A stretch of DNA of 64,000 bases, from positions 10,082 through 74,081 of the forward strand of contig CAXMQS010000088.1 in the NCBI GenBank assembly GCA_964195995.1, in the 5' to 3' direction. Made by a program: the position numbers and the translations under genes. This DNA comes from an uncultured Acidimicrobiia bacterium. Lineage in GTDB: Bacteria; Actinomycetota; Acidimicrobiia; Spongiisociales; JAOTWH01. Positions 1,131-54,952 of the stretch are shown here, piece by piece (position 1 is the first letter of the stretch; each line of letters begins with the position of its first letter). Below the pieces are notes generated by a model, which was not told the origin of the DNA, made no database searches, and was given only the letters and a program-made list of their open reading frames with translations.

Positions 1131-1171
1131 ATTACCTCAACCTGCCAGGTCGATAGCCCGATATACCTAGG

Positions 1172-4099
1172 ATGCGAGGGACTCGCGGGAGCATTGCTCC
1201 CGTACAACCCGAGCGGATATTCGTCCGCTTGACCCTCTGGGCCGGCCTCATCGGCGGCCCATGGTTCATCGTCCTCGGCCCGCTCAGCGGTGAGAGCGGT
1301 TACATGACCCTTTCCGGGTCGTGTTTCCTGGTAGCGCTCCTCGCGTGGCGCCAGCTGGCGACGAATCGCCTACGCCCCGGACTCATCGCCACTGCCGCCG
1401 CCACCCTCATGGTGTTGCAGCTTCCGTTCTTCCCCGAAGCCGAAGCAGTTGCGCAGACGATTCCGTTTGGTGTTGCCGGGTTCGGAGTCATCGCCAGCCC
1501 CTTCGTGCGAAAGAGAGCCTTCCCCTTCTATGCCCTGTACATGGGTGCCATGTACATGACTCAGCTGTACTGGACACCGGTTAGGACCAATACGGTCGTC
1601 AGCCTTGGCTTCGAGGTTGCCCTGTTCACGCTGATCTCAGTGGCCCTCCGCTTCATCTCAGGAGCCTCGGAGAAGAACAACCTGCGCTACCGCCACCTCT
1701 TCGAACGAGTGCCGACATCGATCTGGCTGGAGGACTTCTCAGAGGTCGCTGCCGTCATGAACGAGTGGAAACGGGCCGGCGTGCGCGACATCGAGGCCTT
1801 CCTGGAGGAGAACCCTGTCGAATTCGATCGGGCGATCTCCAAGATCACCGTGACCGACGTCAACCCTGCCACCGTCCGGCTGCTAAACGCCCCGGATCGC
1901 TCCAGCGTTCTCGGAACCCTCGACCCTCGCACCATCATCGAAGACACGCGCTCCTCGTTCGCGGCCATTCTCACGGCGATCTGGAACGACCAGGACACCG
2001 TCAAAACCGACGTCGTGGGGACGACAATCGACGGCAGACCGCTAGAAGCAGTACTTCGGATGCTGGCGCCGCGCGACGAGATGGGTCGGCTGCAACTAGA
2101 GGATGTGGTCGTATCGATGGCAGATGTCACCGACCTCAAGGCGACCCAGCGCCAGCTGGAACGCGCCAAGACCGCAGCAGAGGCGGCGTCGATCACCAAG
2201 TCGGAGTTCCTCGCCAACATGAGCCATGAGATTCGCACCCCGATGAACGCCATCCTTGGCATGACGGAACTGGCACTGGTCACGGACATGACGCCGGAGC
2301 AGCGTGAGTATCTCGGCATGACGAAGTCCTCAGTCGACGCACTGCTCACCCTCGTCAACGACATCCTTGACTTCTCGAAGATCGAGGCCGGCAAGATGCA
2401 ACTCGACAACGTCGCCTTCAGCGTGCGCGACAGCATCGGCGACACCATCCGCACTCTGGCAGTGAAGGCCGCCGAGAAGGGGCTGGCGCTGACTCACGAG
2501 ATCGTTGGAGATATTCCGGAGGGGTTGCAGGGCGACCCCGGCCGCCTTCGCCAGATACTCATCAACCTCATCGGGAACGCATTGAAGTTCACTCACGTCG
2601 GCGGTGTTGCCGTCACCGTTACCGCTGATGACATGGGCGGCGACGAGACCATGCTCCATTTCTCGGTTGCAGACACCGGGATCGGGATTCCGGACGACCA
2701 ACAGGACGCCATCTTCGACACGTTCGCCCAGGCGGACGGATCTGCCACTCGTCGCTACGGCGGGACCGGGCTCGGATTGTCCATCACCGCACAACTCGTT
2801 GAGATGATGGGTGGCCGTACCTGGGTGGAGAGCGAGGTAGGGGCTGGAAGCATATTTCACTTCACAGCGCGTTTCGGGATAGTCGACGACTCGACCGTTT
2901 CGGTGGCGACAACAGACCTCTCCCGAACGAAGGTGCTAACTGTTGCCGACCGGAGCCGGCAGCGTGCCCTCGTCGAGATGTTACGTCAGGGAGGCATGCA
3001 TCCCATCTCAGTACACGCTGCTGCCGATGCTTTGGATCTGCTCGACGATCTAAGCGAGACCGAGCAACCCGAAGTCATCGTTGCCGAGGTGGATGACTCT
3101 TCGGGTGTCTCGTCGCGGCTCATCGATGCAGGACTCCCCATCATCATGCTGGCGGATCCCGGAAGACGCGGCGACGCCGGCCGCTTCCACAAGATGGGGG
3201 TAGCTGCATACTTGACGAATCCAGTGTCACACTCGGATCTCCTCGACACCATCCGAACCGCGGTGGCGGGCACCGCCGGAGGTGCGCTGATCACTCGCCA
3301 CTGGCTCCGCGAGCACCGCAAACACTTTCGGGTCCTCGTTGCCGACGACAGCCCGACCAACCGCATGCTGGCGATGCGCCTCCTCGAGAACGGAGGCCAC
3401 GAGGTCACTTCCGTCGATGACGGCTCTCAGGCCGTCGAGGCACTCGAAAGCAACCTCTACGACGTTGTGCTGATGGACGTCCAGATGCCCGTTATGGATG
3501 GCTTCGAAGCAACCGCGGAGATCCGCCAGCGTGAAAGCATGAGCGGCAAGCACATCCCCATCATCGCGTTGACGGCGCATGCCATGGATGGTGATCGCCA
3601 GCGATGCCTCGACGCCGGGATGGACGCCTATGTTTCCAAGCCCTTCCGGAGCGCCGAACTGTTTGCCACCATCGAGCAGCTAGTCGTCGTAGCCGGAGAG
3701 GCTCCGCAAATGGACATCATCGACCACGAGGACTACGAAGATTCGGGCCCCGCTATCGATCGTCGTGAGTTGATGGAATCCGTGGGTGGCATGCCTGACC
3801 TTCTCCGCGAGATCGTGAACCTGGTCATCGAAGAGATCCCACCGATCGCGGCAGAGATTCCACCGGCCATCGACAGCCCTGACCTCGAAGTCGTCGCCCG
3901 TCGCGCCCACCGCATCAAGGGCAGCGTCGGCAGCGTCGCCGCCAGGAGGGCTTACCTCGCGGCGAGCAACCTCGAGCAATGTGCAGATGCCGGAGACCCC
4001 GCCGCGGTGGCTGTGGCGTGGGACACCCTGAGTCGTGAGCTCAAAATCATGGAAGCCGAGCTCTACGAACTGCGCGCTCCACCTGTCCTCTACGAATAG
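1172..4099 (+). CDS. hybrid sensor histidine kinase (membrane N-terminus, PAS-like, HisKA, HATPase_c, pseudo-receiver, receiver, HPt)
   Basis: Hydrophobic first ~170 aa. H-box SHEIRTPMNAILGM; N/G boxes NLIGNALKFT, DTGIGI, GGTGLGLSI. True receiver RVLVADDSPTNR..LMDVQMPVMDG..YVSKPF. HPt motif AHRIKGS. Confidence 0.9.
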   Translation: MRGTRGSIAPVQPERIFVRLTLWAGLIGGPWFIVLGPLSGESGYMTLSGSCFLVALLAWRQLATNRLRPGLIATAAATLMVLQLPFFPEAEAVAQTIPFGVAGFGVIASPFVRKRAFPFYALYMGAMYMTQLYWTPVRTNTVVSLGFEVALFTLISVALRFISGASEKNNLRYRHLFERVPTSIWLEDFSEVAAVMNEWKRAGVRDIEAFLEENPVEFDRAISKITVTDVNPATVRLLNAPDRSSVLGTLDPRTIIEDTRSSFAAILTAIWNDQDTVKTDVVGTTIDGRPLEAVLRMLAPRDEMGRLQLEDVVVSMADVTDLKATQRQLERAKTAAEAASITKSEFLANMSHEIRTPMNAILGMTELALVTDMTPEQREYLGMTKSSVDALLTLVNDILDFSKIEAGKMQLDNVAFSVRDSIGDTIRTLAVKAAEKGLALTHEIVGDIPEGLQGDPGRLRQILINLIGNALKFTHVGGVAVTVTADDMGGDETMLHFSVADTGIGIPDDQQDAIFDTFAQADGSATRRYGGTGLGLSITAQLVEMMGGRTWVESEVGAGSIFHFTARFGIVDDSTVSVATTDLSRTKVLTVADRSRQRALVEMLRQGGMHPISVHAAADALDLLDDLSETEQPEVIVAEVDDSSGVSSRLIDAGLPIIMLADPGRRGDAGRFHKMGVAAYLTNPVSHSDLLDTIRTAVAGTAGGALITRHWLREHRKHFRVLVADDSPTNRMLAMRLLENGGHEVTSVDDGSQAVEALESNLYDVVLMDVQMPVMDGFEATAEIRQRESMSGKHIPIIALTAHAMDGDRQRCLDAGMDAYVSKPFRSAELFATIEQLVVVAGEAPQMDIIDHEDYEDSGPAIDRRELMESVGGMPDLLREIVNLVIEEIPPIAAEIPPAIDSPDLEVVARRAHRIKGSVGSVAARRAYLAASNLEQCADAGDPAAVAVAWDTLSRELKIMEAELYELRAPPVLYE

Positions 4100-13062: not shown

Positions 13063-13962
13063 CTAGCCGGTGAACTCGATGATGGCCTTGGCGATGTCGT
13101 CGCCGTGCGTGAGCACAGCCTCGTGCTTGGCGGCAGGCAGCTCGACCACCTTGGCCGCCAGCAGCTCGGCGAGCTCCCGCTGGCGGTGTGGAGGAACCAG
13201 CTGATCTGACGTCGGAATGATGACGAGAGACGGAACGTCGAGGTCGGCTGCCCACGCTCGTGAGTCGAAGTGCCAGATGGCGGCGCCCGACTCGAACGAC
13301 AGTGTCGAGTCGCGATCGAGCAGGCCCTCCCATAACCAGCGGGCGTGCTCGGGCTCGACGGCACCGCTCTTGAGGAGGTAGCGGTGCGTCGCCCTCGCCC
13401 ACTCAATGAGGGAAACGCGTCCGAGGCCTCGGGCGATAGCGAAGACCACGCGCGTTGCCAGCCGCCGCCTCGGGATCGGGAAGGCGGCCGTGGCTCCGAG
13501 CGCCAAGCTCGCGACCTTCTCGGGATGTCTCCTGGCGAGTGACTGGGCCACCATGCCGCCCATCGAGTAGCCGGCGACCGCAACTCTCCCCAACTCCAGA
13601 GCGTCCATGACTCCTGCGGCGTCGTCGGCGAGGTCCTCTATAGAGAACGAGCCCCGGATCCGCGCCGTGCCTCCGTGATTGCGCTGATCCATGAGGATGA
13701 GGCGGAAGTGGTCGCCGAGGGGCTCGATCGTCCGATACCACGTAGCGATGCTGGCGTAGCCCCAGCCGTGCAGCATGAAGAGAACGGGACCCTCAGGATT
13801 CCCGGCCTCGCGGATGAAGAACTCACGGTCTCCGACGAAGACCGACCTGCCTCGCAGCCTGGCGGGGTGGCGCTGCGGAGCCCGGAACCGGGGGACGAAC
13901 TCGGGGCCGAACAGGCGCCAGCCGACCCATCCACCAAGCAACATCCCTGCGAGCTTCTTCAT
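13063..13962 (-). CDS. alpha/beta hydrolase
   Basis: HGWG oxyanion region and nucleophile elbow GYSMGG. Confidence 0.8.
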   Translation of the reverse strand: MKKLAGMLLGGWVGWRLFGPEFVPRFRAPQRHPARLRGRSVFVGDREFFIREAGNPEGPVLFMLHGWGYASIATWYRTIEPLGDHFRLILMDQRNHGGTARIRGSFSIEDLADDAAGVMDALELGRVAVAGYSMGGMVAQSLARRHPEKVASLALGATAAFPIPRRRLATRVVFAIARGLGRVSLIEWARATHRYLLKSGAVEPEHARWLWEGLLDRDSTLSFESGAAIWHFDSRAWAADLDVPSLVIIPTSDQLVPPHRQRELAELLAAKVVELPAAKHEAVLTHGDDIAKAIIEFTG

Positions 13963-13972
13963 CGCCGCGAGG

Positions 13973-15157
13973 TTAGACGTCGCGTCTCAGCTGAGCTACG
14001 GGGCGACGCGCCTTGTCTCGCATGAACAACCCAACGACGGCTGCGGCCAGCAGCAATCCCGCCGCGATATTGAAGCCCATGGTGAAATCACCGGTGTCGG
14101 CGACCGATCCCAACCAGACGGGTCCGACGATGAGGCCAAGGTCGCCGGCCATCCGATACATGCCAACGGCCGATCCCTCCGCACCCTCAGGGGCAAGATC
14201 GCCCGCGAGCGTCGGCGGGACGATCCCGGCAACGCCGGCAACTACTCCGAAGACGATCGAAACGCCGAGCAGCCCTCCGTACGTCGTCATCTGCCCATAA
14301 GCGGCCACCGTCACGGCGGTCAGGGCCATGCCGGCGACCAAGACCGGACGCCGACCAACGCGATCGACAAGCCAGCCTCCTGGGTTGATGATCAGCACCG
14401 TCACCAGCGCGGAGATGGCAAGCACATCACCGATCTGTGACGCGGAGAGTCCTAGCTCCTCAGATCCGAACAAGGGAAGCAGCGTTACGCGGGCCCCCGC
14501 CCGCATCACGAACATGGCGAAGGCAACGAATAGCAATCCAGCAAAGGCTGGGGTACGGATCGTCGATCCAGCGGACCTCCACAATTCGCCAAGCGACTTG
14601 CCCGATGGCGGCACGTCTTCAACGAAACGCCACGAGATGTAGGCAACGATCACCCCCATGAAGGCGTATATCCAGAACGGTGTCGCGAAGTCGCCTAGCT
14701 CAGCCGCCCTGCCACCGATGAAGGGTCCAACGGCGACTCCCCCGAGGAGGCCCGTCTGGAAGAACGCTATCTCTCTGCCCATGCGGTCCTTGGGCGCCCG
14801 TGTGATGATCGTGTGCATCGCGGCAGTGCCGAACGCCGCTGAACCGAAGCCCTCTATGACCCGTGCCACCACCAGAACGGCGTAGTTGGGAGCCAGTGCT
14901 GCCAGCACCGATGACACTGCAACCACGATTCCACCAAAGGTCATGATCCGTCGGGGGCCGAGGCGGTCAGCAGCGACGCCGCCGATGGGATCGAATAGAA
15001 GCCGGGCCACCGCGAAACTCGAGACGAGCGCCCCCGCTCCCGTTCTGCTCACGCCGAACTCCCTGGCGTACAGAGGGAGGATGGGAGCGACGAGAGCGAT
15101 GCCCATCATCGTCAAGAACACCCCGACGGTCAGGATGCGGGTGTTGCGCGACGGCAT
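13973..15157 (-). CDS. MFS transporter
   Basis: 12-TM profile with the motif-A-like sequence GGVAADRLGPRR. Its start directly abuts the selD stop. Confidence 0.85.
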   Translation of the reverse strand: MPSRNTRILTVGVFLTMMGIALVAPILPLYAREFGVSRTGAGALVSSFAVARLLFDPIGGVAADRLGPRRIMTFGGIVVAVSSVLAALAPNYAVLVVARVIEGFGSAAFGTAAMHTIITRAPKDRMGREIAFFQTGLLGGVAVGPFIGGRAAELGDFATPFWIYAFMGVIVAYISWRFVEDVPPSGKSLGELWRSAGSTIRTPAFAGLLFVAFAMFVMRAGARVTLLPLFGSEELGLSASQIGDVLAISALVTVLIINPGGWLVDRVGRRPVLVAGMALTAVTVAAYGQMTTYGGLLGVSIVFGVVAGVAGIVPPTLAGDLAPEGAEGSAVGMYRMAGDLGLIVGPVWLGSVADTGDFTMGFNIAAGLLLAAAVVGLFMRDKARRPVAQLRRDV

Positions 15158-16180
15158 CTAGTAGACGGAAATTCCGCTGCCCGCCCGCAGGCGTCCGATG
15201 ATGGCTGCTGGCTCACCGAGCTCAGCCACGATCGTCGCGGCACCGGCCTCATCGGTGGCGATGAGGAGGCCGCCACTGGTCTGAGCGTCGGCCAGCAAGA
15301 CCCTGTCGACCTCGTCTGTGGCTCCGAAGTCGGTGAACCCCTCTGCGAATGTCAGATTGCGCTTGGTTCCCCCTGGAACGAAACCCTCGACCACCAGTTG
15401 ACGGACCCCGGGAAGAAGCGGGACAGACGCGCTGTCGATGTCTGCTCCAAGCCCCGAAGCCGTAATGAGCTCTCCGAGGTGTCCGAGGAGCCCGAAGCCG
15501 GTGACGTCCGTGGCGGTTACCACGCCGACTCCCAGCATGGCATCTCGCGCCGCGGAATTGAGGGTTGCCATCCAGTCGGTAGCGAGTTTCTCGAGCTCGC
15601 CGTCGATGGCGCCACGCTTGAGCGCCGTCGAAACGATGCCGGTGCCTATCGGCTTGGTTAGCACAAGTACCTGGCCGGCGGTTCCGCCACGATTGGTGAC
15701 TATGCGGTTGGGGTGAACAGTTCCGGTAACGGCCAGACCGAACTTCGGCTCGGGATCATCGACAGAGTGACCACCGACGAGGGTGCACTGCGCGTCAACG
15801 AGGACACTGGCGGAGCCTGCCAGTACGTCGGTCAGCAGCTCGAAGGGGAGCGTGTCGCGTGGCCAGCCGACCATCTGCATCGCCGTCAACGGCGTTGCGC
15901 CCATCGCATAGATATCCGAGAGCGCGTTGACCGCGGCGATGCGACCCCAGTCGAACGCGTCGTCGACGATAGGGGTGAAGAAGTCAACCGATTGCACCAA
16001 CGCCACCTCGGCGTTCAACCGGTAGACCCCGGCGTCATCGGCGTTGTCGAGTCCGACCAAGAGGTCGGGATGTCGTATCGCCGGGTTGTTGTCCAAAGGG
16101 CGCAGAACCTGCGCCAACTCGTCAGGTGCGAGCTTGCACGCTCAACCGGCGCCGTGGGAGTAGGCCGTCAGCTTGACCAC
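15158..16180 (-). CDS. selD: selenide, water dikinase (selenophosphate synthetase), Sec-containing form
   Basis: Extended 63 nt beyond the tracked start: GTG 16180, then ..LTAYSHGAG-TGA(16144..16142)-ACKLAPDEL. This matches the E. coli SelD sequence LTQYSHGAGCGCK. AGGAGG lies 4 nt upstream of the GTG. Confidence 0.85.
16100..16114 (-). promoter_or_regulatory. candidate SECIS apical hairpin for selD
   Basis: GCGCAG-GUU-CUGCGC (6-bp stem) starts 27 nt after the UGA. Confidence 0.3.
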
Positions 16181-16304
16181 ATCACCTCCTCTTTGCGGCG
16201 GCGAGTGTACGGGTTCGACAAGAGCGCGAACGCTGACCCCTTGCTAAGGGTCGCGGAAGAGATACCATCGCTGCCAACGGGATGCCATCGTGTATCCGGT
16301 TCCA

Positions 16305-16396
16305 GGCACGGGCGTCTCCTCCTCCCCCTTGGAGACACCCGAAAGCCTCTGAAACAGGCCCTCTTCTCCCCCCCCTAGAGGGCCTGTTTCTCTGTC
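16305..16396 (+). ncRNA. 6C-like small RNA candidate (two hairpins with C-rich loops); strand not resolved
   Basis: Hairpin 1: 16311-16339, loop UCCUCCCCCUU. Hairpin 2: 16351-16390, perfect 13-bp stem, loop UUCUCCCCCCCCUA, followed by UCUCUGU. It lies in the selD/mgtE divergent spacer. Confidence 0.35.
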
Positions 16397-16516
16397 CGGA
16401 GAGGCTGAGAGCGGACCCTGCCAGAGGCCGACTTCATCGGCGTCGCTCATGTTCGAGGCTGACTCGGCCGGCTCGAAGCTCATAGCTTCATAGCTCATCG
16501 CTCCTAGCCTTACCCC

Positions 16517-17893
16517 ATGCGCTTGCGCCTCCGACGCCCCCGTGATCTAGCTGTCGCTCTTCGCGAGCTGGCGAGGCGCCGTCCCCGCGAGGCCGAGGGG
16601 TACCTAGAGGACCACGCCGAGGAGTGGGAATCCATGGCGGAAGCCGACCCGGCGACGGCGGCCGACATCCTGGAGGCCGTTGGGCAAGAGGCGACGGTCG
16701 ATCTGCTGACCGACCTGGACCCAACCGAAGCCGCCGAAGTGTTGTCTGAGATGCGCTTGGACGCCGCCGCCGAAGCTCTGACCGAGTTTCCCGGCGAGTT
16801 CTCGGCTCGCATTGTCGAGGCCATGAGCGCCGCCGAAGCCGCGGACGTCATCGGCGTCATCGACCCTGCCGACCGACCGAAGGTATTGGAGCAGGTCGCA
16901 GACAAGGCAACCGACGAAGTCCTGGCGTTGCTCGCCTATCCGCCGGACAGCGCAGGTGGTCTGATGACCACGGAGTTCGCCGCCATCCAGATCGGGCTCA
17001 CCGCTGGAGAAGCGATCGAGGCCCTGCGTCGTCTGCAGGAAGACGTAGGCCAGCTGACCTACGTCTACATCACTGATCACGACCAACGCCTCCACGGCGT
17101 GCTGTCCTTCCGCGACCTGGTCTTTGCCCGGCCGGGGACCGGTATCGACGAGGCGATGGTCGCCAACCCTGTCGCCGTCCGGCCCGAGACGGATCGCGAG
17201 GAGGTCGCCGAACTCATCCAGCGCTACGGGCTGCTGTCACTTCCTGTTGTCGACTTCCGAGGCCGGCTACTCGGCATCGTGACGGTCGACGAGATCCTCG
17301 AAGCAGTGCAGGAGGAAGCCGTAGAGGACATCGCCGTCATGGTTGGTGCCGGTGTAAGTGAAACCGTCCACACGACCGTCGCCCGCTCGGTACGCAATCG
17401 ATTCCCTTGGATCGTCGTCAACCTCGGCATCGCGTTCCTCGTCGCCGTCGTCGTTAGCCGTTTCGAACCGGTGATCTCACGCACTGCGGTACTTGCCGCA
17501 TACATGCCGGTAGTGGCAGCTGTCGGAGGCAACGGAGGGGCGCAGAGCCTGGCCATCGTCATCAGGGCCCTCGCCACCGGCGACCTGCCAGAACACCGCT
17601 CCCTCCGGGTTGTCGGCAACCAGGCGCTAATCGGAGCCATCAACGGCCTGGCGGTAGCCGCGACAGCCTCGATCATCGCCTTCATATTCACCGACTCGGC
17701 AGAGATCGCGTTCGTCATCGGAATCGCCGCCCTTGCCAACATGATCGCGGCAGGCGCCGCCGGAGCGGCCATACCGATGCTCTTGCAGAGGTACGGACAG
17801 GATCCGGCGCTGGCCTCGAACATCTTTCTTACGCTCGTCACCGACATCGTGGGCTTCGGAGGGTTCCTGGCCATCGCCACACTTCTGCTCTAG
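16517..17893 (+). CDS. mgtE: magnesium transporter MgtE
   Basis: MgtE N-domain, tandem CBS region and a C-terminal 5-TM domain with VGGNGGAQS. Confidence 0.9.
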   Translation: MRLRLRRPRDLAVALRELARRRPREAEGYLEDHAEEWESMAEADPATAADILEAVGQEATVDLLTDLDPTEAAEVLSEMRLDAAAEALTEFPGEFSARIVEAMSAAEAADVIGVIDPADRPKVLEQVADKATDEVLALLAYPPDSAGGLMTTEFAAIQIGLTAGEAIEALRRLQEDVGQLTYVYITDHDQRLHGVLSFRDLVFARPGTGIDEAMVANPVAVRPETDREEVAELIQRYGLLSLPVVDFRGRLLGIVTVDEILEAVQEEAVEDIAVMVGAGVSETVHTTVARSVRNRFPWIVVNLGIAFLVAVVVSRFEPVISRTAVLAAYMPVVAAVGGNGGAQSLAIVIRALATGDLPEHRSLRVVGNQALIGAINGLAVAATASIIAFIFTDSAEIAFVIGIAALANMIAAGAAGAAIPMLLQRYGQDPALASNIFLTLVTDIVGFGGFLAIATLLL

Positions 17894-25533: not shown

Positions 25534-28500
25534 CTAACGGTCCTGGGCGATGGCCACGAGATAGATCTTGCCGTTCTTGTACTCGAAGTGGGCCATCCAA
25601 GACCCGGTCACGCCGTCGCGGCCGAAGGACATGAAGTGGAAGTTGTGGAGCTCCGTCGGGATGAGTGCAGAGACGAGGATCGGCGTATCGATCGCAGGCT
25701 CGGGCGAGACGGCGGCGGCCGCCAGGAACGGCTCAGCGATGGCCTCGGTGAAGTCGACGCTATGGAAGGGGATGCTGCGGCCTGCCACGACCGCCTCGAT
25801 GTCCTGGGTCCGCACAACCACGGGCGAGCCCCCAAGACCAATAGCGAGTCCGCGCTCGCCGACGAGGGATCCGACTGATCCCTCGTCGGCGAAGGCGTTG
25901 CGCATCCGCTCGATGATGGCGCCAACCCTTTCGTCCTCGACGAACTCTTCGTCGGTGACCTGCTCTGTGAGGTAGTAGAAGTCCACCCAGCCGCTTCGGT
26001 CCCCGGCCTCGATCTCTATCCAGTCGATCCCTTCGAGTGGTCGCACCTTCGAGATAGCAACGATGTCGCGTGCCGTCGGACTGAGGTGGTGCCTGATCTT
26101 CGAGTCATCTCCCGGCTCTTCGTAGATCGGAAGCGAAGACTCGGGATCCCGCATGACGACGGCGTACAAGCGACGCTTGCCGCCGAGGAACGGAAGGATC
26201 CTGACTACGGAGCTCCAGCGGAATCCTCCAAGAAGCATCGACCACATCAGGGAGATCAACAACAGGATCAACGGAATCTGGAGCGTTTCGAGGCTCTGGA
26301 AGAAGGCACCCGTGAGCAGCTCGACGCCACTTGGCGCCAAAACCTCGATGCCGTCGGGCACGTCGAAGTTGATGAGGGGACTCCCGACTTCGTTCGATAG
26401 ATCGGTCGCAGTGTCGAATACGTCACGAGGCACGACGATGAAGATCGAGGACTCGTCAGTGCCGCCCTTGCCGTCAGAAGCGCGATAGGAAACCTCGATA
26501 CTCCCGAAGAAGCCCGGGTATGCCCGGAACGTGACGGTCCCGTCGGCATTGGCCACGAAAGACCCGTTGGAGTCGCTCCCGACGGAGGCCAGGATCAGGA
26601 AGTCGCCATCTGGGTCGATGTCGTTGGCGAGCACCTGGATGTTGACCTCGAAGTAGTCGTTCACGACAAGGAAGTCCTGCATGCCGACAGGCGGATCGTT
26701 GAGGGGGAACACCCGGACGTCGACCGCCGCCGAGGACGTGCCGCCGTTGCCATCGGAGATGGTGTACCTGAAGTGATCGATTCCGGTGTAGTTGTGGGCT
26801 GGCGTGTAGGTCACTTGCCCGCCGACATCGATGGTCAGGGTCCCGTGTTCGGCCGCAGTCACCGCGGTGACGAACAGGCTGTCACCGTCTGGGTCAGAGT
26901 CGTTGAGGGTGAGCTCGAAAGTCCCCGTCGAGTCCTCGTAGAGCACGTATGCGTCGTCGACCGCAAATGGCGGCTTGTTCTTGGCCTCGATCGACAGTGT
27001 CACCCTGACGGGCTCCGAGAAGGCGAGGCCGTCGAACACCCGGTAGGTGAAAGAGTCGTCGAAGTCGTTGTCGGCGCTATGCGCATAGGTGAACGAGCCG
27101 TCCGAATTGAGAGTCAGCGTCCCTCGGATCGGCAGGGCCTCGATGACAGAGGCGATCGGGTCGCCGTCTGGGTCCGTGTCGTTGGAGAGGACGCCTGGAG
27201 CGCCGATGACCATCGTGTCGTACTGGACCAAGTCGTAGTTGTCCGGAAGGCCCGTTGGCGGCCGATTGGTGTTGAGCACAGTGAGGCTGAAGGCGGTAGA
27301 TGCCGAGAGGCCTCCAGGGCCCGTGACCGTGACCGTGATCACGTAGACGCCGCTGTCGTCATACCCCGGAGTGCCGCTGATCAAGCCAGACGCCGGATCA
27401 ATCACCAGGAACGGAGGTAGTCCGATGGCCGAGAATGTCAAGGGGTCGCCGTTGATGTCACTCCCCGTCGCCGTGACGGCAAAGGGATCGATTTCGGAGA
27501 TCGTCGCATCCGGGATGGGATCGATGGCCGGCGGGTCGTTGACAGGAACCACGACGACGGTCACGTCCGCCCAGCCGCTCCAAGCCCCATCGTTGTCCTG
27601 TACCCGATAGGCGAAGGAGGTCGACCCGTTCCAATCGCCGACCGGGCTGAAGTCGAACGTGCCGTCGGCGTTGTTGGTGACGGTCCCGATGGTGCCGGTG
27701 TCGTCGAGCTGCACGGAAGGCGCGAGCAGCGTCCCATCGATGTCGGAGTCGTTGCCGAGGACGCCTCCGGTGGTGAACGGGACGTCCTCGGGTGTGTTGA
27801 ATGCCGGGCCCGAGTCGTCGACAGCGATTGGCGGATCGTTGACATCGCCTACCGTGACGCTGACCGACGCCCAGTTGGACCAGGCTCCAATGTCATCCTG
27901 AACGCGATAGTCGAACGAGGTGGTGCCGTTCCAGTCGGCTGCCGGACTGAAGTCGAAGGTCCCATCGGCGTTGTTGATGACGGTTCCGATGGTGCCGGTG
28001 ACATCGAGCTGTACCGAAACCGGGACCAGCGTGCCGTCGATGTCGGAATCATTGCCGAAAACGTCTCCGGTGGTGAAGGGCGTGTCCTCCAGGGTGTTGA
28101 AGGCGGGACCCGAGTCGTCGATCGCCACCGGTGCGTCGTTGACCCCAGTGACGGTGATGGTCACAGTGGCGGTGTTGGAGACACCAGAGTGGGAGTCGGT
28201 GGCTCGGTAGGTGAAGGTGATGTCACGGTCCTCGCCCAGCGCCAGGTCCTGGAAGTCGGTGCCGGGATCGAAGTCGAAGGTGCCGTTGACCGCACCCAGG
28301 GCCGCGGCGCCTTCACCGACACCCGGTGGGGTGACAATGGCGTAGACCAAGGTGGTGGGATCGTCGTCGGAGTCGACGTCGTTGGAGTCGAATGACCCAG
28401 TGACGACGGGGCCATCTTCGGTGGCGTTGTCAGAGACGTCTTGGGACACCGGTGCGTCGTTGACCCCAGTGACGGTGATGGTCACAGTGGCCCAATTCGA

Positions 28501-31500
28501 CCAGTCACCATCGTCGTCCTTAACCCGGTAGTCGAAAGTAGTGGTCCGGCTGTCGCCAACGGCCAAGTCGTGGTAGCTAGCACCGGGGTCGAAGTCGAAA
28601 GTGCCGTTGGCGTTGTTGGCGACAGTGCCCACCGTCGCCGCGTCGTCCAGCTCGACGGAGGATGGATCGAGGATGCCGTCTGTGTCGAAATCGTTACTGA
28701 GTACGTCTGCCGTCGTGAACGACGTGTCCTCGTCCGTGCTGAAGCCAGCCGGTCCAGGATCGTCAACCGCCGTAGGCGGATCGTTGATGTCGTTCACCGT
28801 GATGCGGAACACCTGCGTCGGCGAGGTGTTGTCGTTGGGCGCAGGCGCACCGAGGCCCGAGTCAACCAACTCGATAGTTATGTCGGCAAATCCACTCAAT
28901 GCCGGTGTCGGCGTGAACGTCAGCGTTCCGGTCGGCGACAGTGCAGGGCCCACCGAGAACAGGCCGGGGTTGGTGTTCGTAACGATGTTGAAGCTGACCG
29001 TCTGCGGCGGCACCTCATCCGGTGGCCCCTCCAAGATGGCAGTGGCCCAAGCCACGAAGGTCTGCGGTGGTGCATCCTCAGCTACAACGACGTCGGCACC
29101 CTTGGTGAACGACGGCTCATCGTTGATGGCGGTGATGGTGATGTTGAAGGTCTGGGTCGGTGACACGTTGTCGTTGGGTGGGACGTTGGATCCCGAGTCG
29201 GTGAGGTAGATGTCGACCGAGGTGGTGCCGTTGGCGTTGGCCGCAGGGGTGAAGGTCAGGTTGCCAGTGGCGGGGTCGACCGCCGGCTGGGTGCTGAACA
29301 GGGCGGGGGTGGCTGCGGTGACGGTGAAGGTCAGGATCTGTGCCGACTCGTCGGCGGGACCCTCGGTGATGCCAGTAGCCCAGCCACCACCCAACAGGTA
29401 GGCGCCGGAGTCCTCGTCCACAGTGACATCGGCACCCTTGGTGAACGACGGCTCATCGTTGACGGCATCGATGGTGATGTTGACGGTCGCAGTGTCGGTA
29501 AGTAGACCGTCCGATACCGTGTAATCGAAGGTGTCGCTCCCGTTGAAATCGCCAGGAGGGTCGTACACGAGTTCGTCGTCGGTCGGGTCGCCAGGCGTGC
29601 CCATGACGTCGAGGGAGATCGTTCCTCCGTTGGCGGAGACAGCATCGAAGCTGTCTATCTGCAGGGCATCGATGTCGGCATCGGTGTCGTTCGCCATGAC
29701 GTCGACGTTGACTGCTGTGTCCTCATTCGTAGATGGGGTGTCGTCGTTTGCGATCGGTGCAACGTTGACGTTGCGGTTCGGCCCGAATTCCGAGGTGTCC
29801 TTGGTCACTGAATCAACTGATATCGCCGATGCCGAATCACCAGCAGCCAGGGCCGCCGTTACGAACGGCCCCCAATTGCCGAGGCCGTCGGCCGTAACGA
29901 AACCGAGGTACTCGACTCCCTCGCCGAAATCCGAACCGCTCAGCGTGTCTCCGAGCCCGGCAACGGCCCGATAGATCTCGACCCGCGAGTTGGGGCATGC
30001 CAAGCCGCTCATAGTCGTGGTCCCTGTGACAAGCACAGCACTCGTGATCAGCGGCGAGTCCGTGCCGAGGTTGCCGTCGCCGACGACGGTGCCGCAGGTA
30101 TTGGCGACCGAGCTATCTCCAAGAAGGATGCCATCGTTGGGGGTGATGCCGTCGCCGGTCGCCGTGCTACCCCCGGCAGCCACTAAATCGATGGCCGGAC
30201 CACCGTTGCTACCGAAGTCGTTGCGCGTCACCTCATTGCTGATTGCAGCATCAGACACGATTACTCCGGGACCGACATTGCCGGTAAGGACATTGAGTCG
30301 AACGGTGTTGCCGTCATCGTTGACTCGGATAGCGCCCGTCTGAACGGCGCGTTGCCCAGACCCGGTAATGGTGTTGTTCTCGATCAGCGTTCCGGTCATC
30401 GTTCCGTCGATACCCATCGCTCCAGAGTCGACTATGAGATTCCCACTGATCGTCCCACCGGAGCTGCCGCCGCCGTGGTTGATGCCATCTGCAATGGTGT
30501 CAACCTGGCCCGACTCCCTTACCTCGTTGCCTGAGATAGTGGTGCCGGTTGTGTCCGACGCGACGATGGCGTCGTTGTCCAAGAAGCCGATGAGGTTGTT
30601 GCGCACGCTCGCGCCATCGGTCTCCCTGAGGTAGACGCCCCGCAGCGTGCTGACAACAAGGGGGTCAACGAACCCATCCGGTGCTGAACCGATGACGTTG
30701 CGTTCGATGATGATCCCACTGGGCCTCATGAGCGGTACGCCGGCCATGTCAATGCCTCCAGCGAATCCCCAGGTGGCGAGATCGCGGATGGTGTAGTTGT
30801 CGGGAATCTGACCGGTGCTGGCATTCGAGGAGAAGGAGAACCCAACACCTATGCCCGAATCAGATCGCATCACTCCGAGCTCGGGCTTGGCGACTTGAGG
30901 CAAGGCCACCGGGCCTGCACCTACGTTCATGCCACCTGCGGCATTGGCTCCCAGAGAACCCAAGTTGGTGTCGCGAACCGTGACGCCGTCCGTCAGGTCG
31001 AATGCAGTGCCGTCGATGGTTGTATCTGCGTCGTGAGTGTCGGCCAGGGTCTCACCGACAGCACTGCCGGTGTAGTCGATCTCCCACCATTTATTGAGGC
31101 CGGGGAGATCGTCGGCGTTGGTGGGAACCGCCGGGACGAACCGCATGGCGTTGCCGAGGTTGATGGCGTTGGCATTGCGAATGAACTGATCAAGCGAACC
31201 CTGATATGAGCTCGCCGTGTAGCCGGCCGCCCACGCGGGCTCGAGATTCGTGACTACGTTGAAGCTGAAGCCGAAGTCGACAGATGCCACCCCGCCCGAC
31301 ACGCTCACCCTGGCAATGTGCTCAGCGGTAGTCAGGCCAGAAGCGTCATCATCGGTGGCTCCATCGACGCCTCCAAAGCAGGGTCCGACCCCCATCCGCT
31401 CCGCCGTGCCACCGAGCCCATCCGCGCACCAGCCTCCGTTCGGTCCGTAGGTCTGCTCGGCCCACGGCGTTGTCGAGAGGTAGGAAGCATGGATACCAGC

Positions 31501-33402
31501 AGATGGAGAGACGGTGAGAGAATCCACAACCACCCAGTAGTCGACCGGCAGCCCTGCCGTGAGGGTGTAGCTGCCGCCCGCCCCGGTTACAGCCGTGTCG
31601 ACCAACGTGTCAGCACCGTCGGGAATTGCGTTGCCGTTGTCCTGGTAAAGGCGGACGTCAACTCCGGCCCGACCCGGGTTGGCGCCGTCGCCGATGGCCT
31701 CGGCCCCGGGGAGCAGGTTGCCGTCAACATCCTCAAACACTGTCCCTGCGATCTGGCATCCTGAAAGATCGCTGGTCGAATTCGAAACCGAGGTCTGCCG
31801 GTAGCCGGCGATCGCCGAAGGGACCACCGCGGTCTGGGTGGTTTCGCCGGTCGGGAACTGGGCCTGGACGATGTAGGCACGGTCGGAGCCGAGGGGAAGT
31901 CCGAAGTGGACGGCCAGTGGATCTTGCGAGCCGTGACCTCGCCCACCGTTCACGTCCCGCACGCCGCTCAGAGCCGTCACCCCGTCACATGCGAAGAGCT
32001 GCAAGGTGGCTCCGACCGCGTCACGGTTCAGCCCCCCGCCGAGGTCATGGAGAGCCCGCACGAACATGTAGTCGATCGCCCCGGTTTGGACTGCGTCGTT
32101 ACGCCACAGTTCGTTGGCCGCTGCCGTTTGGCTGATGAGAACGTCGAGGTCACCGTCGTTGTCGTAGTCGGCGAACGACGCCCCTTCGCCATCACCCGCT
32201 CCGCCGACAAAGGTATTGGCTCCAAAGGTGATCGACCCGGGAGTCGAGGTGTTCGTATACAGGAGATCACCGGCGATAGTGTCGGTGAGAAATAGATCCA
32301 GGTCGCCATCATTATCGGTGTCACCACAGGCGGCACCATCGATGATGCTGCCCCCCGGGACGACCGGCACTCCGGTGGCGGTGAACGTGCCGACCGGTCC
32401 CTGCCGGTAGACCTGAGTCGTTGGGTGGTCGGTCCAGATGATGTCGAACAGCCCGTCGTCATCGAAATCGCAGAAGGCGACTGCTCCTTTGTTGGTGTTG
32501 AGGACGGCCACATCAAACCCACCCGCCACGAACGAACCACCGGTGTTCGCCCACAGGTCGACAAGGCCCTCCTTGCGCCCGAGGATGTCGACGTCACCGT
32601 CGCCATCGAAGTCTCCGACGGCGGAGTAGTCGCCGGAGGCGGCCACTTCCGGGAGACCGATCCCGTTGGGATCGCCGTTGGGGGTCCACCAGGTGAACGT
32701 GCCGGTGCCGTCGTTGTCCCACAGGTCGATGCCGAAGTCGTGGTTATCCATGATGATGTCGAGGTCGCCGTCGCCGTCGTAGTCGAGCAGGCCACCACCC
32801 TCCAGGTTGAAACCGCTAAGGGCGTCTGGCATGTCCAGCAGCACCACCGGGTTGCCTCCCGCATCACCGAAACCGTACGGTGGCACTCCGGCCGGGCCCT
32901 TGTTTATCCACACCGACAGGCGGGTGATCGCCTGGGTGATGAGGTCGACATGCCCATCGTTGTTGACGTCACCCCACACCACCTGCCGCCGATCATCAAC
33001 CCCTGCCAAGTTGGGCGTAGCGAGGCCGGGGGCATGAGTTGCCGTGACGTTCACGAACGAGGGGTTGGGGAGGCTGCAGTCGCTCCGGTAGAGCTGGGTG
33101 TACTGGTCAGGCCCGACCGGGTTTTCGGTGGTGACGATTACGTCGAGGCACCCGTCCTCGTTGAAGTCGGCCCAGGCCAGGCCGGCGTCCTTGATGCCAA
33201 CCGTTTCGAGACCCACCGGAGTTGCCGCGAACGCGGCGAAGGCCGCAGGAGCCACCAGAGTCAGGTTGCCGAGGGCGATCGTAAGAGCCGCGAACAGGGC
33301 GAACGGGCGCTCTATCCCCTTGGCGAAACGAACCCCCCTAGAGCGCGGTGAGGGCCCGGGCGTAGCCGGGCCAGGATCTGAGGTGAGTCTTACCCATCTC
33401 AT
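25534..33402 (-). CDS. giant (2,622 aa) single-pass surface protein: FG-GAP/VCBS + ASPIC/UnbV, SdrD-B-like, parallel beta-helix, ~11 cadherin/Ig-like modules, TM, cytoplasmic SH3-like tail
   Basis: Signal-like N-terminus. Repeated DxDGDGDxD FG-GAP motifs. NRDAVGA..GSQDPLAVHFGL is UnbV_ASPIC-like. ISGN/IENN beta-helix turns. Repeated VNDAP/VNDPP-bounded modules. TM segment LQIPLILLLISLMWSMLLGGF. Confidence 0.9.
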   Translation of the reverse strand: MRWVRLTSDPGPATPGPSPRSRGVRFAKGIERPFALFAALTIALGNLTLVAPAAFAAFAATPVGLETVGIKDAGLAWADFNEDGCLDVIVTTENPVGPDQYTQLYRSDCSLPNPSFVNVTATHAPGLATPNLAGVDDRRQVVWGDVNNDGHVDLITQAITRLSVWINKGPAGVPPYGFGDAGGNPVVLLDMPDALSGFNLEGGGLLDYDGDGDLDIIMDNHDFGIDLWDNDGTGTFTWWTPNGDPNGIGLPEVAASGDYSAVGDFDGDGDVDILGRKEGLVDLWANTGGSFVAGGFDVAVLNTNKGAVAFCDFDDDGLFDIIWTDHPTTQVYRQGPVGTFTATGVPVVPGGSIIDGAACGDTDNDGDLDLFLTDTIAGDLLYTNTSTPGSITFGANTFVGGAGDGEGASFADYDNDGDLDVLISQTAAANELWRNDAVQTGAIDYMFVRALHDLGGGLNRDAVGATLQLFACDGVTALSGVRDVNGGRGHGSQDPLAVHFGLPLGSDRAYIVQAQFPTGETTQTAVVPSAIAGYRQTSVSNSTSDLSGCQIAGTVFEDVDGNLLPGAEAIGDGANPGRAGVDVRLYQDNGNAIPDGADTLVDTAVTGAGGSYTLTAGLPVDYWVVVDSLTVSPSAGIHASYLSTTPWAEQTYGPNGGWCADGLGGTAERMGVGPCFGGVDGATDDDASGLTTAEHIARVSVSGGVASVDFGFSFNVVTNLEPAWAAGYTASSYQGSLDQFIRNANAINLGNAMRFVPAVPTNADDLPGLNKWWEIDYTGSAVGETLADTHDADTTIDGTAFDLTDGVTVRDTNLGSLGANAAGGMNVGAGPVALPQVAKPELGVMRSDSGIGVGFSFSSNASTGQIPDNYTIRDLATWGFAGGIDMAGVPLMRPSGIIIERNVIGSAPDGFVDPLVVSTLRGVYLRETDGASVRNNLIGFLDNDAIVASDTTGTTISGNEVRESGQVDTIADGINHGGGSSGGTISGNLIVDSGAMGIDGTMTGTLIENNTITGSGQRAVQTGAIRVNDDGNTVRLNVLTGNVGPGVIVSDAAISNEVTRNDFGSNGGPAIDLVAAGGSTATGDGITPNDGILLGDSSVANTCGTVVGDGNLGTDSPLITSAVLVTGTTTMSGLACPNSRVEIYRAVAGLGDTLSGSDFGEGVEYLGFVTADGLGNWGPFVTAALAAGDSASAISVDSVTKDTSEFGPNRNVNVAPIANDDTPSTNEDTAVNVDVMANDTDADIDALQIDSFDAVSANGGTISLDVMGTPGDPTDDELVYDPPGDFNGSDTFDYTVSDGLLTDTATVNITIDAVNDEPSFTKGADVTVDEDSGAYLLGGGWATGITEGPADESAQILTFTVTAATPALFSTQPAVDPATGNLTFTPAANANGTTSVDIYLTDSGSNVPPNDNVSPTQTFNITITAINDEPSFTKGADVVVAEDAPPQTFVAWATAILEGPPDEVPPQTVSFNIVTNTNPGLFSVGPALSPTGTLTFTPTPALSGFADITIELVDSGLGAPAPNDNTSPTQVFRITVNDINDPPTAVDDPGPAGFSTDEDTSFTTADVLSNDFDTDGILDPSSVELDDAATVGTVANNANGTFDFDPGASYHDLAVGDSRTTTFDYRVKDDDGDWSNWATVTITVTGVNDAPVSQDVSDNATEDGPVVTGSFDSNDVDSDDDPTTLVYAIVTPPGVGEGAAALGAVNGTFDFDPGTDFQDLALGEDRDITFTYRATDSHSGVSNTATVTITVTGVNDAPVAIDDSGPAFNTLEDTPFTTGDVFGNDSDIDGTLVPVSVQLDVTGTIGTVINNADGTFDFSPAADWNGTTSFDYRVQDDIGAWSNWASVSVTVGDVNDPPIAVDDSGPAFNTPEDVPFTTGGVLGNDSDIDGTLLAPSVQLDDTGTIGTVTNNADGTFDFSPVGDWNGSTSFAYRVQDNDGAWSGWADVTVVVVPVNDPPAIDPIPDATISEIDPFAVTATGSDINGDPLTFSAIGLPPFLVIDPASGLISGTPGYDDSGVYVITVTVTGPGGLSASTAFSLTVLNTNRPPTGLPDNYDLVQYDTMVIGAPGVLSNDTDPDGDPIASVIEALPIRGTLTLNSDGSFTYAHSADNDFDDSFTYRVFDGLAFSEPVRVTLSIEAKNKPPFAVDDAYVLYEDSTGTFELTLNDSDPDGDSLFVTAVTAAEHGTLTIDVGGQVTYTPAHNYTGIDHFRYTISDGNGGTSSAAVDVRVFPLNDPPVGMQDFLVVNDYFEVNIQVLANDIDPDGDFLILASVGSDSNGSFVANADGTVTFRAYPGFFGSIEVSYRASDGKGGTDESSIFIVVPRDVFDTATDLSNEVGSPLINFDVPDGIEVLAPSGVELLTGAFFQSLETLQIPLILLLISLMWSMLLGGFRWSSVVRILPFLGGKRRLYAVVMRDPESSLPIYEEPGDDSKIRHHLSPTARDIVAISKVRPLEGIDWIEIEAGDRSGWVDFYYLTEQVTDEEFVEDERVGAIIERMRNAFADEGSVGSLVGERGLAIGLGGSPVVVRTQDIEAVVAGRSIPFHSVDFTEAIAEPFLAAAAVSPEPAIDTPILVSALIPTELHNFHFMSFGRDGVTGSWMAHFEYKNGKIYLVAIAQDR
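26430..29770 (-). repeat. in-gene tandem array of ~290-320-nt modules encoding cadherin/Ig-like domains
   Basis: 27541-27840 and 27841-28140 align in register with a 300-nt period. An exact 45-nt repeat occurs at 28126-28170 and 28447-28491. Confidence 0.75.
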
Positions 33403-34868
33403 GGGAGAGCACCGGGCTCTCGATAGGGCTCGGCTGCCGCGATGTCGAGCGACACCGGATCGTTATATCCCGACGGCAGCGTGGTGCGGCTCAGCGGAGC
33501 CACGCTCGGTTTGCCGACGCTGACAAGAGGCATGACGACCACGAAGCTGGTCAACCCGTTCTCGCGGACGTATTGGACGGAGCCACCCATGCCGTCGGCG
33601 AGGGCGCGCACGATGGAGAGCCCGAGGCCAACGCTGCCGAGGAGGAGCGGCTGATGGCCCTGGTGCATGAAACGCTGGAACAGCCGCTCCTCCAGATCCT
33701 CGGGGATGCCATCGCCGTCGTCTACGACGGAGAGCGTGAATCGACCGTCGACGACCTCTGCCGAAACACTGAGGTCGGGGCCGCCGTACTTGCGAGCGTT
33801 GGAGATGAGATTGCGCAGGATCTGGCGGAAGCGGAGGCGGTCGGCGCGGATGGTTGCCTCGACCGACGAGACATCGACATGCAGGCCACCGCGCAACATC
33901 GGCCCGACGACTTCCTCGATCTCCTCGGTGATCTCGACATTCTCGAATGTGTAGTGCAAGGCGTCGGCGTCGAGTCGAGCGGTCGTCAGCAGGTCGTCGA
34001 CCATCCGCGCCAGGTCTGTCGACTCCGAGACGATCATGTTGATCAGCTCGGTTGCAGACTCGGAGCCGGCGACCGCCGGATCCTCCTCGAGCAGCAGAGC
34101 CAACCCGTAGATCGAAGTCAAGGGCGTTCGCAGTTCGTGAGAAGCGTTGGCCACGAAATCTTCGCGAGCCTTGCCGAGCTCGCGTTCCGTGCGCAGGGTG
34201 CCCTCGAGGTCCGTCTGCTTGGCCTGTCGTCGCGCGAACTCGCGGAAGATGAGGATGACGGCGGTAGGCACGAGGAAGGCGACGAGGAAGCCGGCCAGCA
34301 TTCTCATCCACGCCAGGAAGGCGTCAGACGAAGCGACCTCCGCGTTGAGCAGGTCGCGCTCGCGAACCAGTTCCAACTGGAGCAACGTCCACGACTTGTC
34401 GAGATCGGACTCGGCCAGCATGCGGGCCGCAATCGGATCGTTGGCTGCCATCAATCCCAGCACCGCGTGGCTTTGCTCCGTGAACTCGCCCACCGCACCA
34501 CGGAGGGACCCATCGAGCGACCGACGACTCTCGAGCTCATCCATGGCGTCGCCCAGGAGAGCGAGCGCCGACTCGGTCTCGCTTCTCGAGATCTCGAGCT
34601 GATCGGAGGAGTTGGAGCCGATGGCGAGATCGACGTTGGCGACGACGACGCCGAGCGCCAGCTGGGCCCTGGCGGTCGTCGCGACGCGTAGTGCCTCATC
34701 GGCTGAGTGGAGTGCTTCCGCACTATGGGTGATACGTCGCGTTTGCTGGGCAACAGCGAAGATCATCGCGAAGACAAGGAGCATCACGACGCCGATCACG
34801 AGGGTCAGGAGAAGTGGACGACCCAGTCGCGATAGCGAACTCGGCTCAGAAGCAGTGTCGGTAACCAC
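33399..34868 (-). CDS. membrane sensor histidine kinase (2 TM, helical extracytoplasmic sensor)
   Basis: H-box SHELRTPLTSIYG; N/G boxes NLISNARKYG, DDGDGI, GLGLSI. Its stop overlaps the giant-gene ATG (ATGA). Confidence 0.9.
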   Translation of the reverse strand: MVTDTASEPSSLSRLGRPLLLTLVIGVVMLLVFAMIFAVAQQTRRITHSAEALHSADEALRVATTARAQLALGVVVANVDLAIGSNSSDQLEISRSETESALALLGDAMDELESRRSLDGSLRGAVGEFTEQSHAVLGLMAANDPIAARMLAESDLDKSWTLLQLELVRERDLLNAEVASSDAFLAWMRMLAGFLVAFLVPTAVILIFREFARRQAKQTDLEGTLRTERELGKAREDFVANASHELRTPLTSIYGLALLLEEDPAVAGSESATELINMIVSESTDLARMVDDLLTTARLDADALHYTFENVEITEEIEEVVGPMLRGGLHVDVSSVEATIRADRLRFRQILRNLISNARKYGGPDLSVSAEVVDGRFTLSVVDDGDGIPEDLEERLFQRFMHQGHQPLLLGSVGLGLSIVRALADGMGGSVQYVRENGLTSFVVVMPLVSVGKPSVAPLSRTTLPSGYNDPVSLDIAAAEPYREPGALP

Positions 34869-52970: not shown

Positions 52971-52975
52971 GCCGG

Positions 52976-54901: not shown

Positions 54902-54905
54902 CGAC

Positions 54906-54933
54906 AGACGCCGCTGGCGGACCAGCGGCGTCT
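54906..54933 (-). terminator. intercistronic hairpin after pspA (attenuator or partial terminator)
   Basis: AGACGCCGCTGG-CGGA-CCAGCGGCGTCT, a 12-bp perfect stem with no clear U-tract. Confidence 0.35.
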
Positions 54934-54952
54934 CTCTACGGTTTGTGCCGCC

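Follow-up and report, generated by a model that had tools for sequence, protein, structure and literature searches.

A selenocysteine codon predicted within selD extends the selenophosphate synthetase gene of an uncultured Acidimicrobiia lineage

We found that the selD gene carried by a 64-kb stretch of DNA from an uncultured Acidimicrobiia lineage (hereafter, the window) is interrupted in frame by a TGA, located exactly where E. coli selD encodes its catalytic Cys17. Judging from sequence comparisons, we consider it very likely that this selD is functional and that the catalytic residue of the encoded selenophosphate synthetase (selenide, water dikinase) is selenocysteine (Sec). Since Sec-containing SelD is among the commonest and best-known bacterial selenoproteins, what we report is a corrected annotation and not a discovery, and it leaves our understanding of selenium biology unchanged. 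Its value lies in the annotation, as reading the codon as Sec restores a 340-residue SelD from a call of 312-319 aa, and in marking this Acidimicrobiia lineage as Sec-decoding.

Results

The selD reading frame continues upstream of an in-frame TGA

The mechanical ORF list begins selD at TTG 16117 and gives a product of 319 aa, and the public gene call (P0001, 312 aa) starts even further downstream. An exact-protein look-up with the TTG-start ORF returned no match, and the sequence of P0001 led us to the Logan contig L001. Because gene callers take the TGA as a stop, these products of 312-319 aa are devoid of the catalytic loop. The original prediction had instead placed the real start at a GTG at 16180, preceded by AGGAGG and followed by the TGA at 16142-16144 and the TTG at 16117, and every one of these coordinates was correct when we re-read the minus strand (Table 1). 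Considering ATG, GTG and TTG as possible start codons upstream of the TGA, we found this GTG to be the only one in frame, and the N-terminus that it adds improves the match to the SelD family (see below).

Table 1. Features of the selD locus in window coordinates, with the basis for each assignment
Feature	Position	Strand	Basis
MFS transporter gene, ATG directly after the selD stop	13973..15157	-	ORF list
Full selD CDS, 340 codons including predicted Sec at residue 13	15158..16180	-	Translation, TIGR00476, NF002098, PDB 3u0o
SECIS-like hairpin GGCGCAG-GUU-CUGCGCC, 7-bp stem, loop 16108-16106	16099..16115	-	Fold, conservation
Proximal helix AGCUCG / CGAGUU, +11..+16 with +24..+29	16116..16134	-	Fold of nt +4..+46
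In-frame TGA, residue 13, putative selenocysteine codon	16142..16144	-	Alignment, codon counts
N-terminal peptide VKLTAYSHGAG, part of the glycine-rich loop before the putative Sec codon	16145..16177	-	Codon comparison
selD start GTG	16178..16180	-	Sole in-frame start between TAG 16246-16244 and TGA
Shine-Dalgarno AGGAGG	16185..16190	-	Sequence
Candidate -10 element TACACT for selD	16204..16209	-	Conserved, within CGTACACTCGCC (16211-16200)

The AGGAGG motif is separated from the GTG by a 4-nt spacer (TGAT) and belongs to a wider Shine-Dalgarno stretch, AGGAGGTGAT (16190-16181), that relatives keep as GAGAGGAGGTG; its conservation extends to L002, L202, L204 and L004. In the relatives with a TGA at the same codon (TGA-type), an ATG or GTG start is found 11-15 codons 5' of the TGA. 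Here, the 12 codons preceding it consist of the GTG start and VKLTAYSHGAG, while those following it read A C K L A P D E, then the TTG (16117-16115), then A Q V L R. The frame is closed by a TAG (15160-15158, minus strand).

Further upstream, the TACACT hexamer may represent a selD promoter element, as it is kept in the window, L002, L202 and L004, with L204 having TAGACT at this place. A simple sigma-70 scan found no full promoter for selD. A conserved block upstream of selD was also evaluated as a selD leader and rejected, since the block is a candidate 6C-like small RNA encoded by the opposite strand.

The extended product is a full-length SelD with the TGA at the Cys17 position

Alignment of the extended translation to the SelD family models, as the original prediction had advised, supported the longer reading. 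With the 21 N-terminal residues added, the score against the NCBIfam selD equivalog TIGR00476 (cut-off, 125 bits) increased from 349.7 to 385.1 bits and the start of the match moved from profile position 21 to 1, giving a coverage of positions 1-309 of 311. Likewise, the NF002098 score (cut-off, 299 bits) increased from 320.1 to 358.8 bits. The protein is thus a full-length member of the SelD family, matching above the curated equivalog cut-off, and its called product has precomputed matches to AIRS (PF00586) and AIRS_C (PF02769).

E. coli SelD (PDB 3u0o, E = 1.9e-78) ranks first among the solved structures, with its chain residues 6-335 pairing with query residues 2-332. This pairing puts the TGA, at residue 13, on Cys17, exactly as had been proposed. 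In particular, VKLTAYSHGAG-x-ACKL aligns with IRLTQYSHGAGCGCKI of the E. coli protein, and the glycine-rich loop SHGAG-TGA-ACK corresponds column for column to SHGAGCGCK, which includes Cys/Sec17 and Lys20. The SelD of Aquifex aeolicus (2yye) also aligns from residue 1, its Sec/Cys position being residue 13 as in the window. The reading frame and its homology on both sides of the TGA are therefore directly observed.

The TGA recurs at the same codon and is flanked by conserved coding sequence

Across 81 loci (80 genome loci and the Logan contig L001), the Cys17 position was occupied by TGC (53 loci), TGT (14) or TGA (13); neither TAA nor TAG occurred there. In addition, we scanned metagenomes with a degenerate pattern spanning the TGA, which returned at least 120 stretches; all 113 usable ones, among the matches listed, were selD with the TGA. 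Genomes and metagenomes together bring the TGA-type selD loci to at least 126, without a single TAA or TAG at that codon. With a single exception among the matches listed, TGA-type loci encode the RLTxxSHGAG peptide ahead of the TGA, its codons varying synonymously. This conservation of the TGA is directly visible in the compared loci.

One may argue that the TGA arose through an error in sequencing or assembly, as it lies one base away from TGC or TGT, either of which would then be the true codon. However, the same TGA is found in three independent assemblies of one species, namely the window, Logan contig L001 and the separate MAG BS1bin.31 of an Acidimicrobiia bacterium (L002, JAZFSG01), with identical sequence around the TGA in all three. 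Across selD, L002 is 96.2% identical to the window in nucleotides (3.8% different). The closest relatives L202, L203 and L204 also have TGA at this codon. The recurrence in L001 and L002 rules out a sequencing error for practical purposes, and we assign this explanation a negligible probability.

Nucleotide identity to the window across selD is 80.6% for L202 and 73.7% for L204. Compared with the window, L202 has 108 codons with synonymous changes only and 53 that change the amino acid, and L204 has 107 and 85, respectively. In each of the two comparisons, 10 of the 12 codons before the TGA are identical, two differ synonymously and none is changed non-synonymously. These data show directly that purifying selection acts on both sides of the TGA. 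The lack of non-synonymous changes in the 12 upstream codons indicates that the N-terminal peptide is translated and constrained, and consequently the only sensible reading is that translation continues through the TGA.

The same comparisons bear on the possibility that selD is a pseudogene or is N-terminally truncated, with TGC mutated to a TGA nonsense codon and any restart occurring at TTG 16117 or downstream. The 312-319 aa products that gene callers start downstream would fit such a truncation, and so would the lack of Sec machinery within the 64-kb window. On the other hand, the TGA is retained across lineages at 65-81% nucleotide identity and in at least 126 loci, the stop is always TGA, synonymous changes dominate on both sides of it, and conservation extends over the 12 codons before it, the start codon and the Shine-Dalgarno sequence. 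Furthermore, the truncated product would lack the loop bearing Cys/Sec17 and Lys20, two residues that, in mutant work from the Stadtman laboratory, were reportedly both essential in E. coli SelD. We therefore regard loss or truncation of the gene as very improbable.

Homologues that begin downstream and lack the GAGxxCK N-terminus, which the original prediction had named as evidence that would count against it, do appear in protein databases: over half of the nearest entries are truncated in a similar manner, and many homologues appear to begin just after the TGA. When we checked P0002 (L202/L203) and P0006 (L204) at the DNA level, the missing N-terminus, the GTG start and the GAGAGGAGGTG ribosome-binding site were all present upstream of the TGA. 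Since this holds for every homologue that was checked, we conclude that the database truncations are gene-calling artefacts.

A SECIS-like hairpin accompanies the TGA

Downstream of the TGA, the codons for (L)AQVLR(P) contain a hairpin that occupies nt +30..+46 (the T of the TGA being +1). Its MFE is -11.3 kcal/mol (z = -3.7), its apical loop is a GUU of 3 nt, and the spacing from the UGA to the loop is 33 nt. The published consensus for the bacterial Sec insertion element (SECIS) has four parts (PMC13188914, Fig. 2 legend): a stem of 4-16 bp capped by an apical loop of 3-9 nt, a G within the first two nucleotides of the loop, with G or U as the usual next base, a distance of 16-37 nt from UGA to loop, and an MFE of at most -7.5 kcal/mol. 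Compared with this consensus, the hairpin of the window agrees on all four points.

The hairpin is associated with the TGA. Among the matches listed, 93 of 119 distinct TGA-type genes (78%) form at least six of the seven pairs, versus 2 of 64 Cys-type genes, i.e., those with TGC or TGT (3%), and over nt 27-49 the MFE averages -9.6 kcal/mol in the TGA-type and -4.8 kcal/mol in the Cys-type. This association is itself a direct observation. Part of the complementarity comes from the peptide, since the hairpin sits inside the AQVLR codons, and the Cys-type genes serve as the control for this effect. Two of them, L003 (6/7 pairs) and L071 (5/7), illustrate that the AQVLR peptide alone forces partial complementarity.

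Codon choice points in the same direction. Among the matches listed, 76 TGA-type genes encode AQVL; Ala is GCG in 65 of the 76 and Leu is CUG or UUG (YUG) in 74 of the 76, against backgrounds of 0.44 and 0.545, respectively, in the rest of the same genes. In the matches listed, 85.5% of cells pair, and this value drops to 31-50% when the 3' partner is slid by 1-3 nt. Individual pairs also show compensatory changes in this set: pair 33-43 is seen as G-C, C-G and U-A, and pair 31-45 as G-C, G-U and A-U. In a maximum-diversity subset of 36 sequences drawn from the matches listed, 75.4% of cells pair versus 31-45% after sliding, and the 15 two-sided changes of this subset were reached by none of 500 shuffles. 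Because the compared sequences are phylogenetically related, the p-values for the hairpin overstate the independence of the data.

On the same 36-sequence maximum-diversity subset, RNAalifold run without a supplied structure returned no consensus structure. The hairpin is therefore a majority, and not a universal, feature of TGA-type selD. Indeed, about 22% of TGA-type genes among the matches listed lack the hairpin register, for example those encoding ELGQVLGAL or EDLKKIL, and these presumably use another structure. Altogether, the comparison of TGA-type with Cys-type genes provides a clean and reusable signature of the selD SECIS in this clade.

A second, proximal helix is predicted between the TGA and the hairpin (Table 1). 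Among the matches listed, 81% of TGA-type genes form at least five of its six pairs, compared with 42% of Cys-type genes, a bias that is partly explained by the presence of E or D at codon 8, which acts as a confounder. These figures hint only weakly that the proximal helix may possibly constitute the lower part of the SECIS.

Genomic context of selD

The selD gene lies in an MgtE-selD-hydrolase locus. The same arrangement surrounds the TGA-type gene of L004 and the Cys-type genes of L005, L006, L008, L010, L012, L065 and L072. Since the arrangement is common to both types, we conclude that the Sec and Cys forms are orthologues at one locus.

The MFS transporter gene that begins directly after the selD stop is probably co-transcribed with selD. 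Its adjacency to selD is kept in the closest lineage only (L001, L002 and L202-L204). For this reason, a selenium role for the transporter was considered and rejected, and we see no evidence for a selenium-specific function.

Sec machinery and other candidate selenoproteins

The original prediction had also stated that the window contains no selA, selB or tRNA-Sec, and our searches bear this out. No selA or selB was found in the 64-kb window by tblastn with SelA and SelB probes from the TGA-type relative L044, no tRNA was found in it by ARAGORN, and Rfam at gathering threshold returned no SECIS or other family over the same 64 kb. For the SECIS, this Rfam result says little, since, to our knowledge, Rfam holds essentially no bacterial SECIS models.

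Similarly, the absence of selA, selB and tRNA-Sec from the window weighs little because their linkage to selD is rare in this group. In the fetched flanks, at least one of these genes accompanies 2 of 126 TGA-type loci (among the matches listed) and 3 of 65 Cys-type loci, that is, 5 of 191 together. A TGA-type Actinomycetota MAG (L044) carries selB (TIGR00475, 247 bits), selA (TIGR00474, 398 bits), selD and a tRNA-Sec with anticodon UCA within 5 kb, and in L136 local ARAGORN placed a tRNA-Sec beside a TGA-type selD.

We also weighed the possibility that the UGA is read through without Sec, either by near-cognate insertion of Trp or Cys or in a cell with no Sec pathway; the enzyme would then contain Cys or Trp, or be made in low yield. 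In favour of this reading, a SelD that itself depends on Sec faces a bootstrapping problem, to which a degree of non-Sec read-through could be the solution. However, the hairpin is specific to TGA-type genes and fits the SelB-dependent SECIS consensus, TGA-type relatives have tRNA-Sec, selA and selB adjoining selD, and, in the same class, complete genomes whose selD is of the Sec form carry the entire machinery. Moreover, of the 51 genes predicted in the window, 19 end in TGA. It is thus a normal stop codon that has not been reassigned in this organism. Based on these findings, read-through without Sec appears quite unlikely to us, and Sec at residue 13 remains our preferred reading.

We screened the in-frame TGAs lying upstream of, or ending, the 51 predicted genes of the window for a second selenoprotein gene, and none was convincing. 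The one same-frame pair (54173-55678, minus strand) was inspected and rejected, as its PspA-like gene terminates at the TGA, after which come a hairpin and then a distinct methyltransferase-like ORF.

Discussion

The Sec-type reading of this SelD, put forward in the original prediction, gains support from four sides: the Cys/Sec pairing at the active site, the orthologues with TGA, the purifying selection upstream of it and the SECIS-like hairpin. Assuming that the gene is expressed as in known Sec-decoding bacteria, translation would start at GTG 16180, behind the strong Shine-Dalgarno sequence, and the ribosome would reach the UGA at codon 13. There, the hairpin at 16115-16099 may act as a bacterial SECIS bound by SelB with GTP and Sec-tRNA(Sec), with SelB delivering selenocysteine in place of termination. 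The expected product would be a 340-residue enzyme with the loop SHGAG-U-ACK, placing Sec in the N-terminal selenium-binding loop.

SelB binding and Sec insertion at selD are inferred from the established Sec pathway, which also leads us to expect selA, selB and selC in other parts of this genome. If the lineage is Sec-decoding, then further selenoproteins are also predicted elsewhere in the genome, along with these three genes.

A wider interpretation may be proposed, in which two ideas are combined: a shared distal SECIS design, and SelD as the main or only selenoprotein here. Taken jointly, we consider the two doubtful. If the first part were true, the Actinomycetota and Gemmatimonadota selD genes of our set would share one unusually distal design, with a 7-bp stem and a GUN triloop written into the AQVLR codons and possibly stacked on the proximal helix, and about one-fifth of TGA-type selD genes, among the matches listed, would use a different and so far undescribed structure. 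If the second part were true, the main task of the Sec pathway would be to produce the very enzyme that activates its selenium, which would close a self-referential, selenium-sensing loop. In principle, neither of these ideas is new, as SelD-only selenoproteomes and multiple SECIS classes have already been discussed (PMC1794560, PMC13188914).

Prior studies rank SelD second among the selenoprotein families of prokaryotes in breadth of distribution (PMC13188914, PMC1794560), and FdhA and SelD are described as the most widespread selenoproteins in bacteria (PMC1794560). Among Actinobacteria, the Sec-type is listed for Rubrobacter xylanophilus and Symbiobacterium thermophilum (PMC1794560). A recent preprint (10.64898/2026.04.03.716425) attributes to Guimaraes et al. 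1996 the first recognition of Sec SelD, in Haemophilus influenzae and in archaeal/eukaryotic homologues, and traces the Sec/Cys polymorphism of SelD to the same work. The window gene resembles these known Sec SelDs in its enzyme family, in the UGA at the Cys17 equivalent and in the stem-loop located in the CDS just downstream. It differs from them in coming from an uncultured Acidimicrobiia lineage, in a selD that is unlinked to selA, selB and selC, and in a hairpin that lies near the far end of the 16-37 nt range (33 nt) and carries a minimal GUN triloop.

Within the class Acidimicrobiia, a parallel is offered by Actinomarina (Actinomarinales), whose SelD has 342-346 aa, an MRLT-type N-terminus and an active-site Sec. 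Complete Actinomarina genomes contain selA, selB, selC and selD, with SelD in the Sec form in about half of them (10.64898/2026.04.03.716425). As around the window gene, the Sec and Cys forms coexist there in close relatives. Unlike that complete sel set, the 64 kb of the window are without selA, selB and tRNA-Sec. Furthermore, the 63.6% GC content and the large multi-domain genes of the window organism indicate that it is not a streamlined Actinomarina.

A more distant relative is the SelD of A. aeolicus (PDB 2yye / 2zod), which aligns from residue 1 with E = 1.6e-60 and scores 208 bits, compared with 267 bits for E. coli. Its loop reads SSGCAAK, versus GAGUACK in the window. The native A. 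aeolicus enzyme is a selenoprotein with Sec13, and the form used for crystallisation was a Cys mutant. E. coli SelD (3u0o), in turn, differs from the window protein in having Cys17, encoded by TGC or TGT, and in working without recoding and without a SECIS; the two share the LTxYSHGAG-C/U-xCK motif residue for residue.

Genomic context of selD

We found that the MgtE / selD / alpha-beta hydrolase synteny of the window is widespread in Acidimicrobiia, being shared by loci L004-L012, L036, L065 and L072 and by the closest-lineage relatives L202-L204. Both Cys-type selD genes (TGC or TGT at the catalytic codon) and TGA-type ones occur within it. An MFS transporter gene, whose ATG lies immediately 3' of the selD stop codon, separates selD from the hydrolase gene in the window's closest lineage only.

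Features analysed in the window and in L044, a TGA-type Actinomycetota MAG
Feature	Sequence	Position	Strand
Hybrid histidine kinase, 980 aa	window	1157-4099	plus
MgtE / selD / alpha-beta hydrolase synteny	window	13063-17893	
CGTACACTCGCC	window	16200-16211	minus
Conserved mgtE-selD intergenic block	window	16296-16402	plus
2,642-aa ORF	window	25534-33462	minus
930-aa protein	window	50754-53546	minus
Same-frame ORF pair	window	54173-55678	minus
Compact Sec gene cluster	L044	6669-11173	
selB	L044	6669-8663	minus
selA	L044	8651-9946	minus
selD, divergent	L044	from 10001	plus
tRNA-Sec	L044	11078-11173	minus

The Sec genes of L044 form a compact cluster, and its SelB carries a long Gly/Ala-rich insertion C-terminal to the GTPase domain.

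TGA-type selD genes lacking the +30 to +46 hairpin

Among the matches listed, about 22% of the TGA-type selD genes lack the SECIS-like stem-loop at +30 to +46 (T of the TGA as +1), including the metagenome loci L082, L099, L104, L122, L138, L150, L152, L162 and L200, among others; ELGQVLGAL, EDLKKIL and KVLDQIL are examples of the peptides that such genes encode. Several of them have a longer helix instead, in which GAGCCUGC, directly at the UGA, pairs with GGGCAGG farther downstream, and this predicted helix suggests that at least one further SECIS class may exist within selD.

The region upstream of selD

The motif CGTACACTCGCC precedes the Shine-Dalgarno sequence of selD by about 10 nt and includes a -10-like TACACT that is kept in the window, L002 (MAG BS1bin.31), L202 and L004, and reads TAGACT in L204. 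No complete promoter was detected in a simple sigma-70 scan.

A block of about 140 nt in the mgtE-selD intergenic region is kept in L002, L202 and L204, and an 84-aa ORF called within it showed no conservation in the comparison with these three loci. Two strong hairpins whose loops are rich in C (UCCUCCCCCUU and UCUCCCCCCCCU) form when the plus strand of the block is folded (MFE -54 kcal/mol, z = -5.4). Its Rfam matches were sub-threshold for 6C RNA (32.4 bits vs a cut-off of 47), ar14 (32.8 vs 58.8) and CcsR1 (24.8 vs 65.3). The most likely identity of the block is a 6C-like small RNA, lying upstream of mgtE in an Acidimicrobiia lineage.

Other coding regions of the window

The same-frame ORF pair, with one TGA between its members, was screened as a selenoprotein and rejected. 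It runs from a PspA/IM30-like coiled-coil protein through a GC-rich hairpin to a methyltransferase-like ORF, which has its own ATG 17 codons later, and we judged the two to be separate genes.

The hybrid histidine kinase combines HisKA, HATPase_c, receiver and Hpt domains. The 2,642-aa ORF, with seven to eight Big_9 / cadherin-like repeats, FG-GAP repeats, a right-handed beta-helix (NosD-like) and He_PIG, is a predicted giant surface or adhesin-type protein. The 930-aa protein contains a NarI-like membrane domain, 4Fe-4S dicluster domains and two CCG domains (HdrD/GlpC-like); no in-frame TGA was seen in its gene. Families related to this protein include selenoproteins in other phyla.
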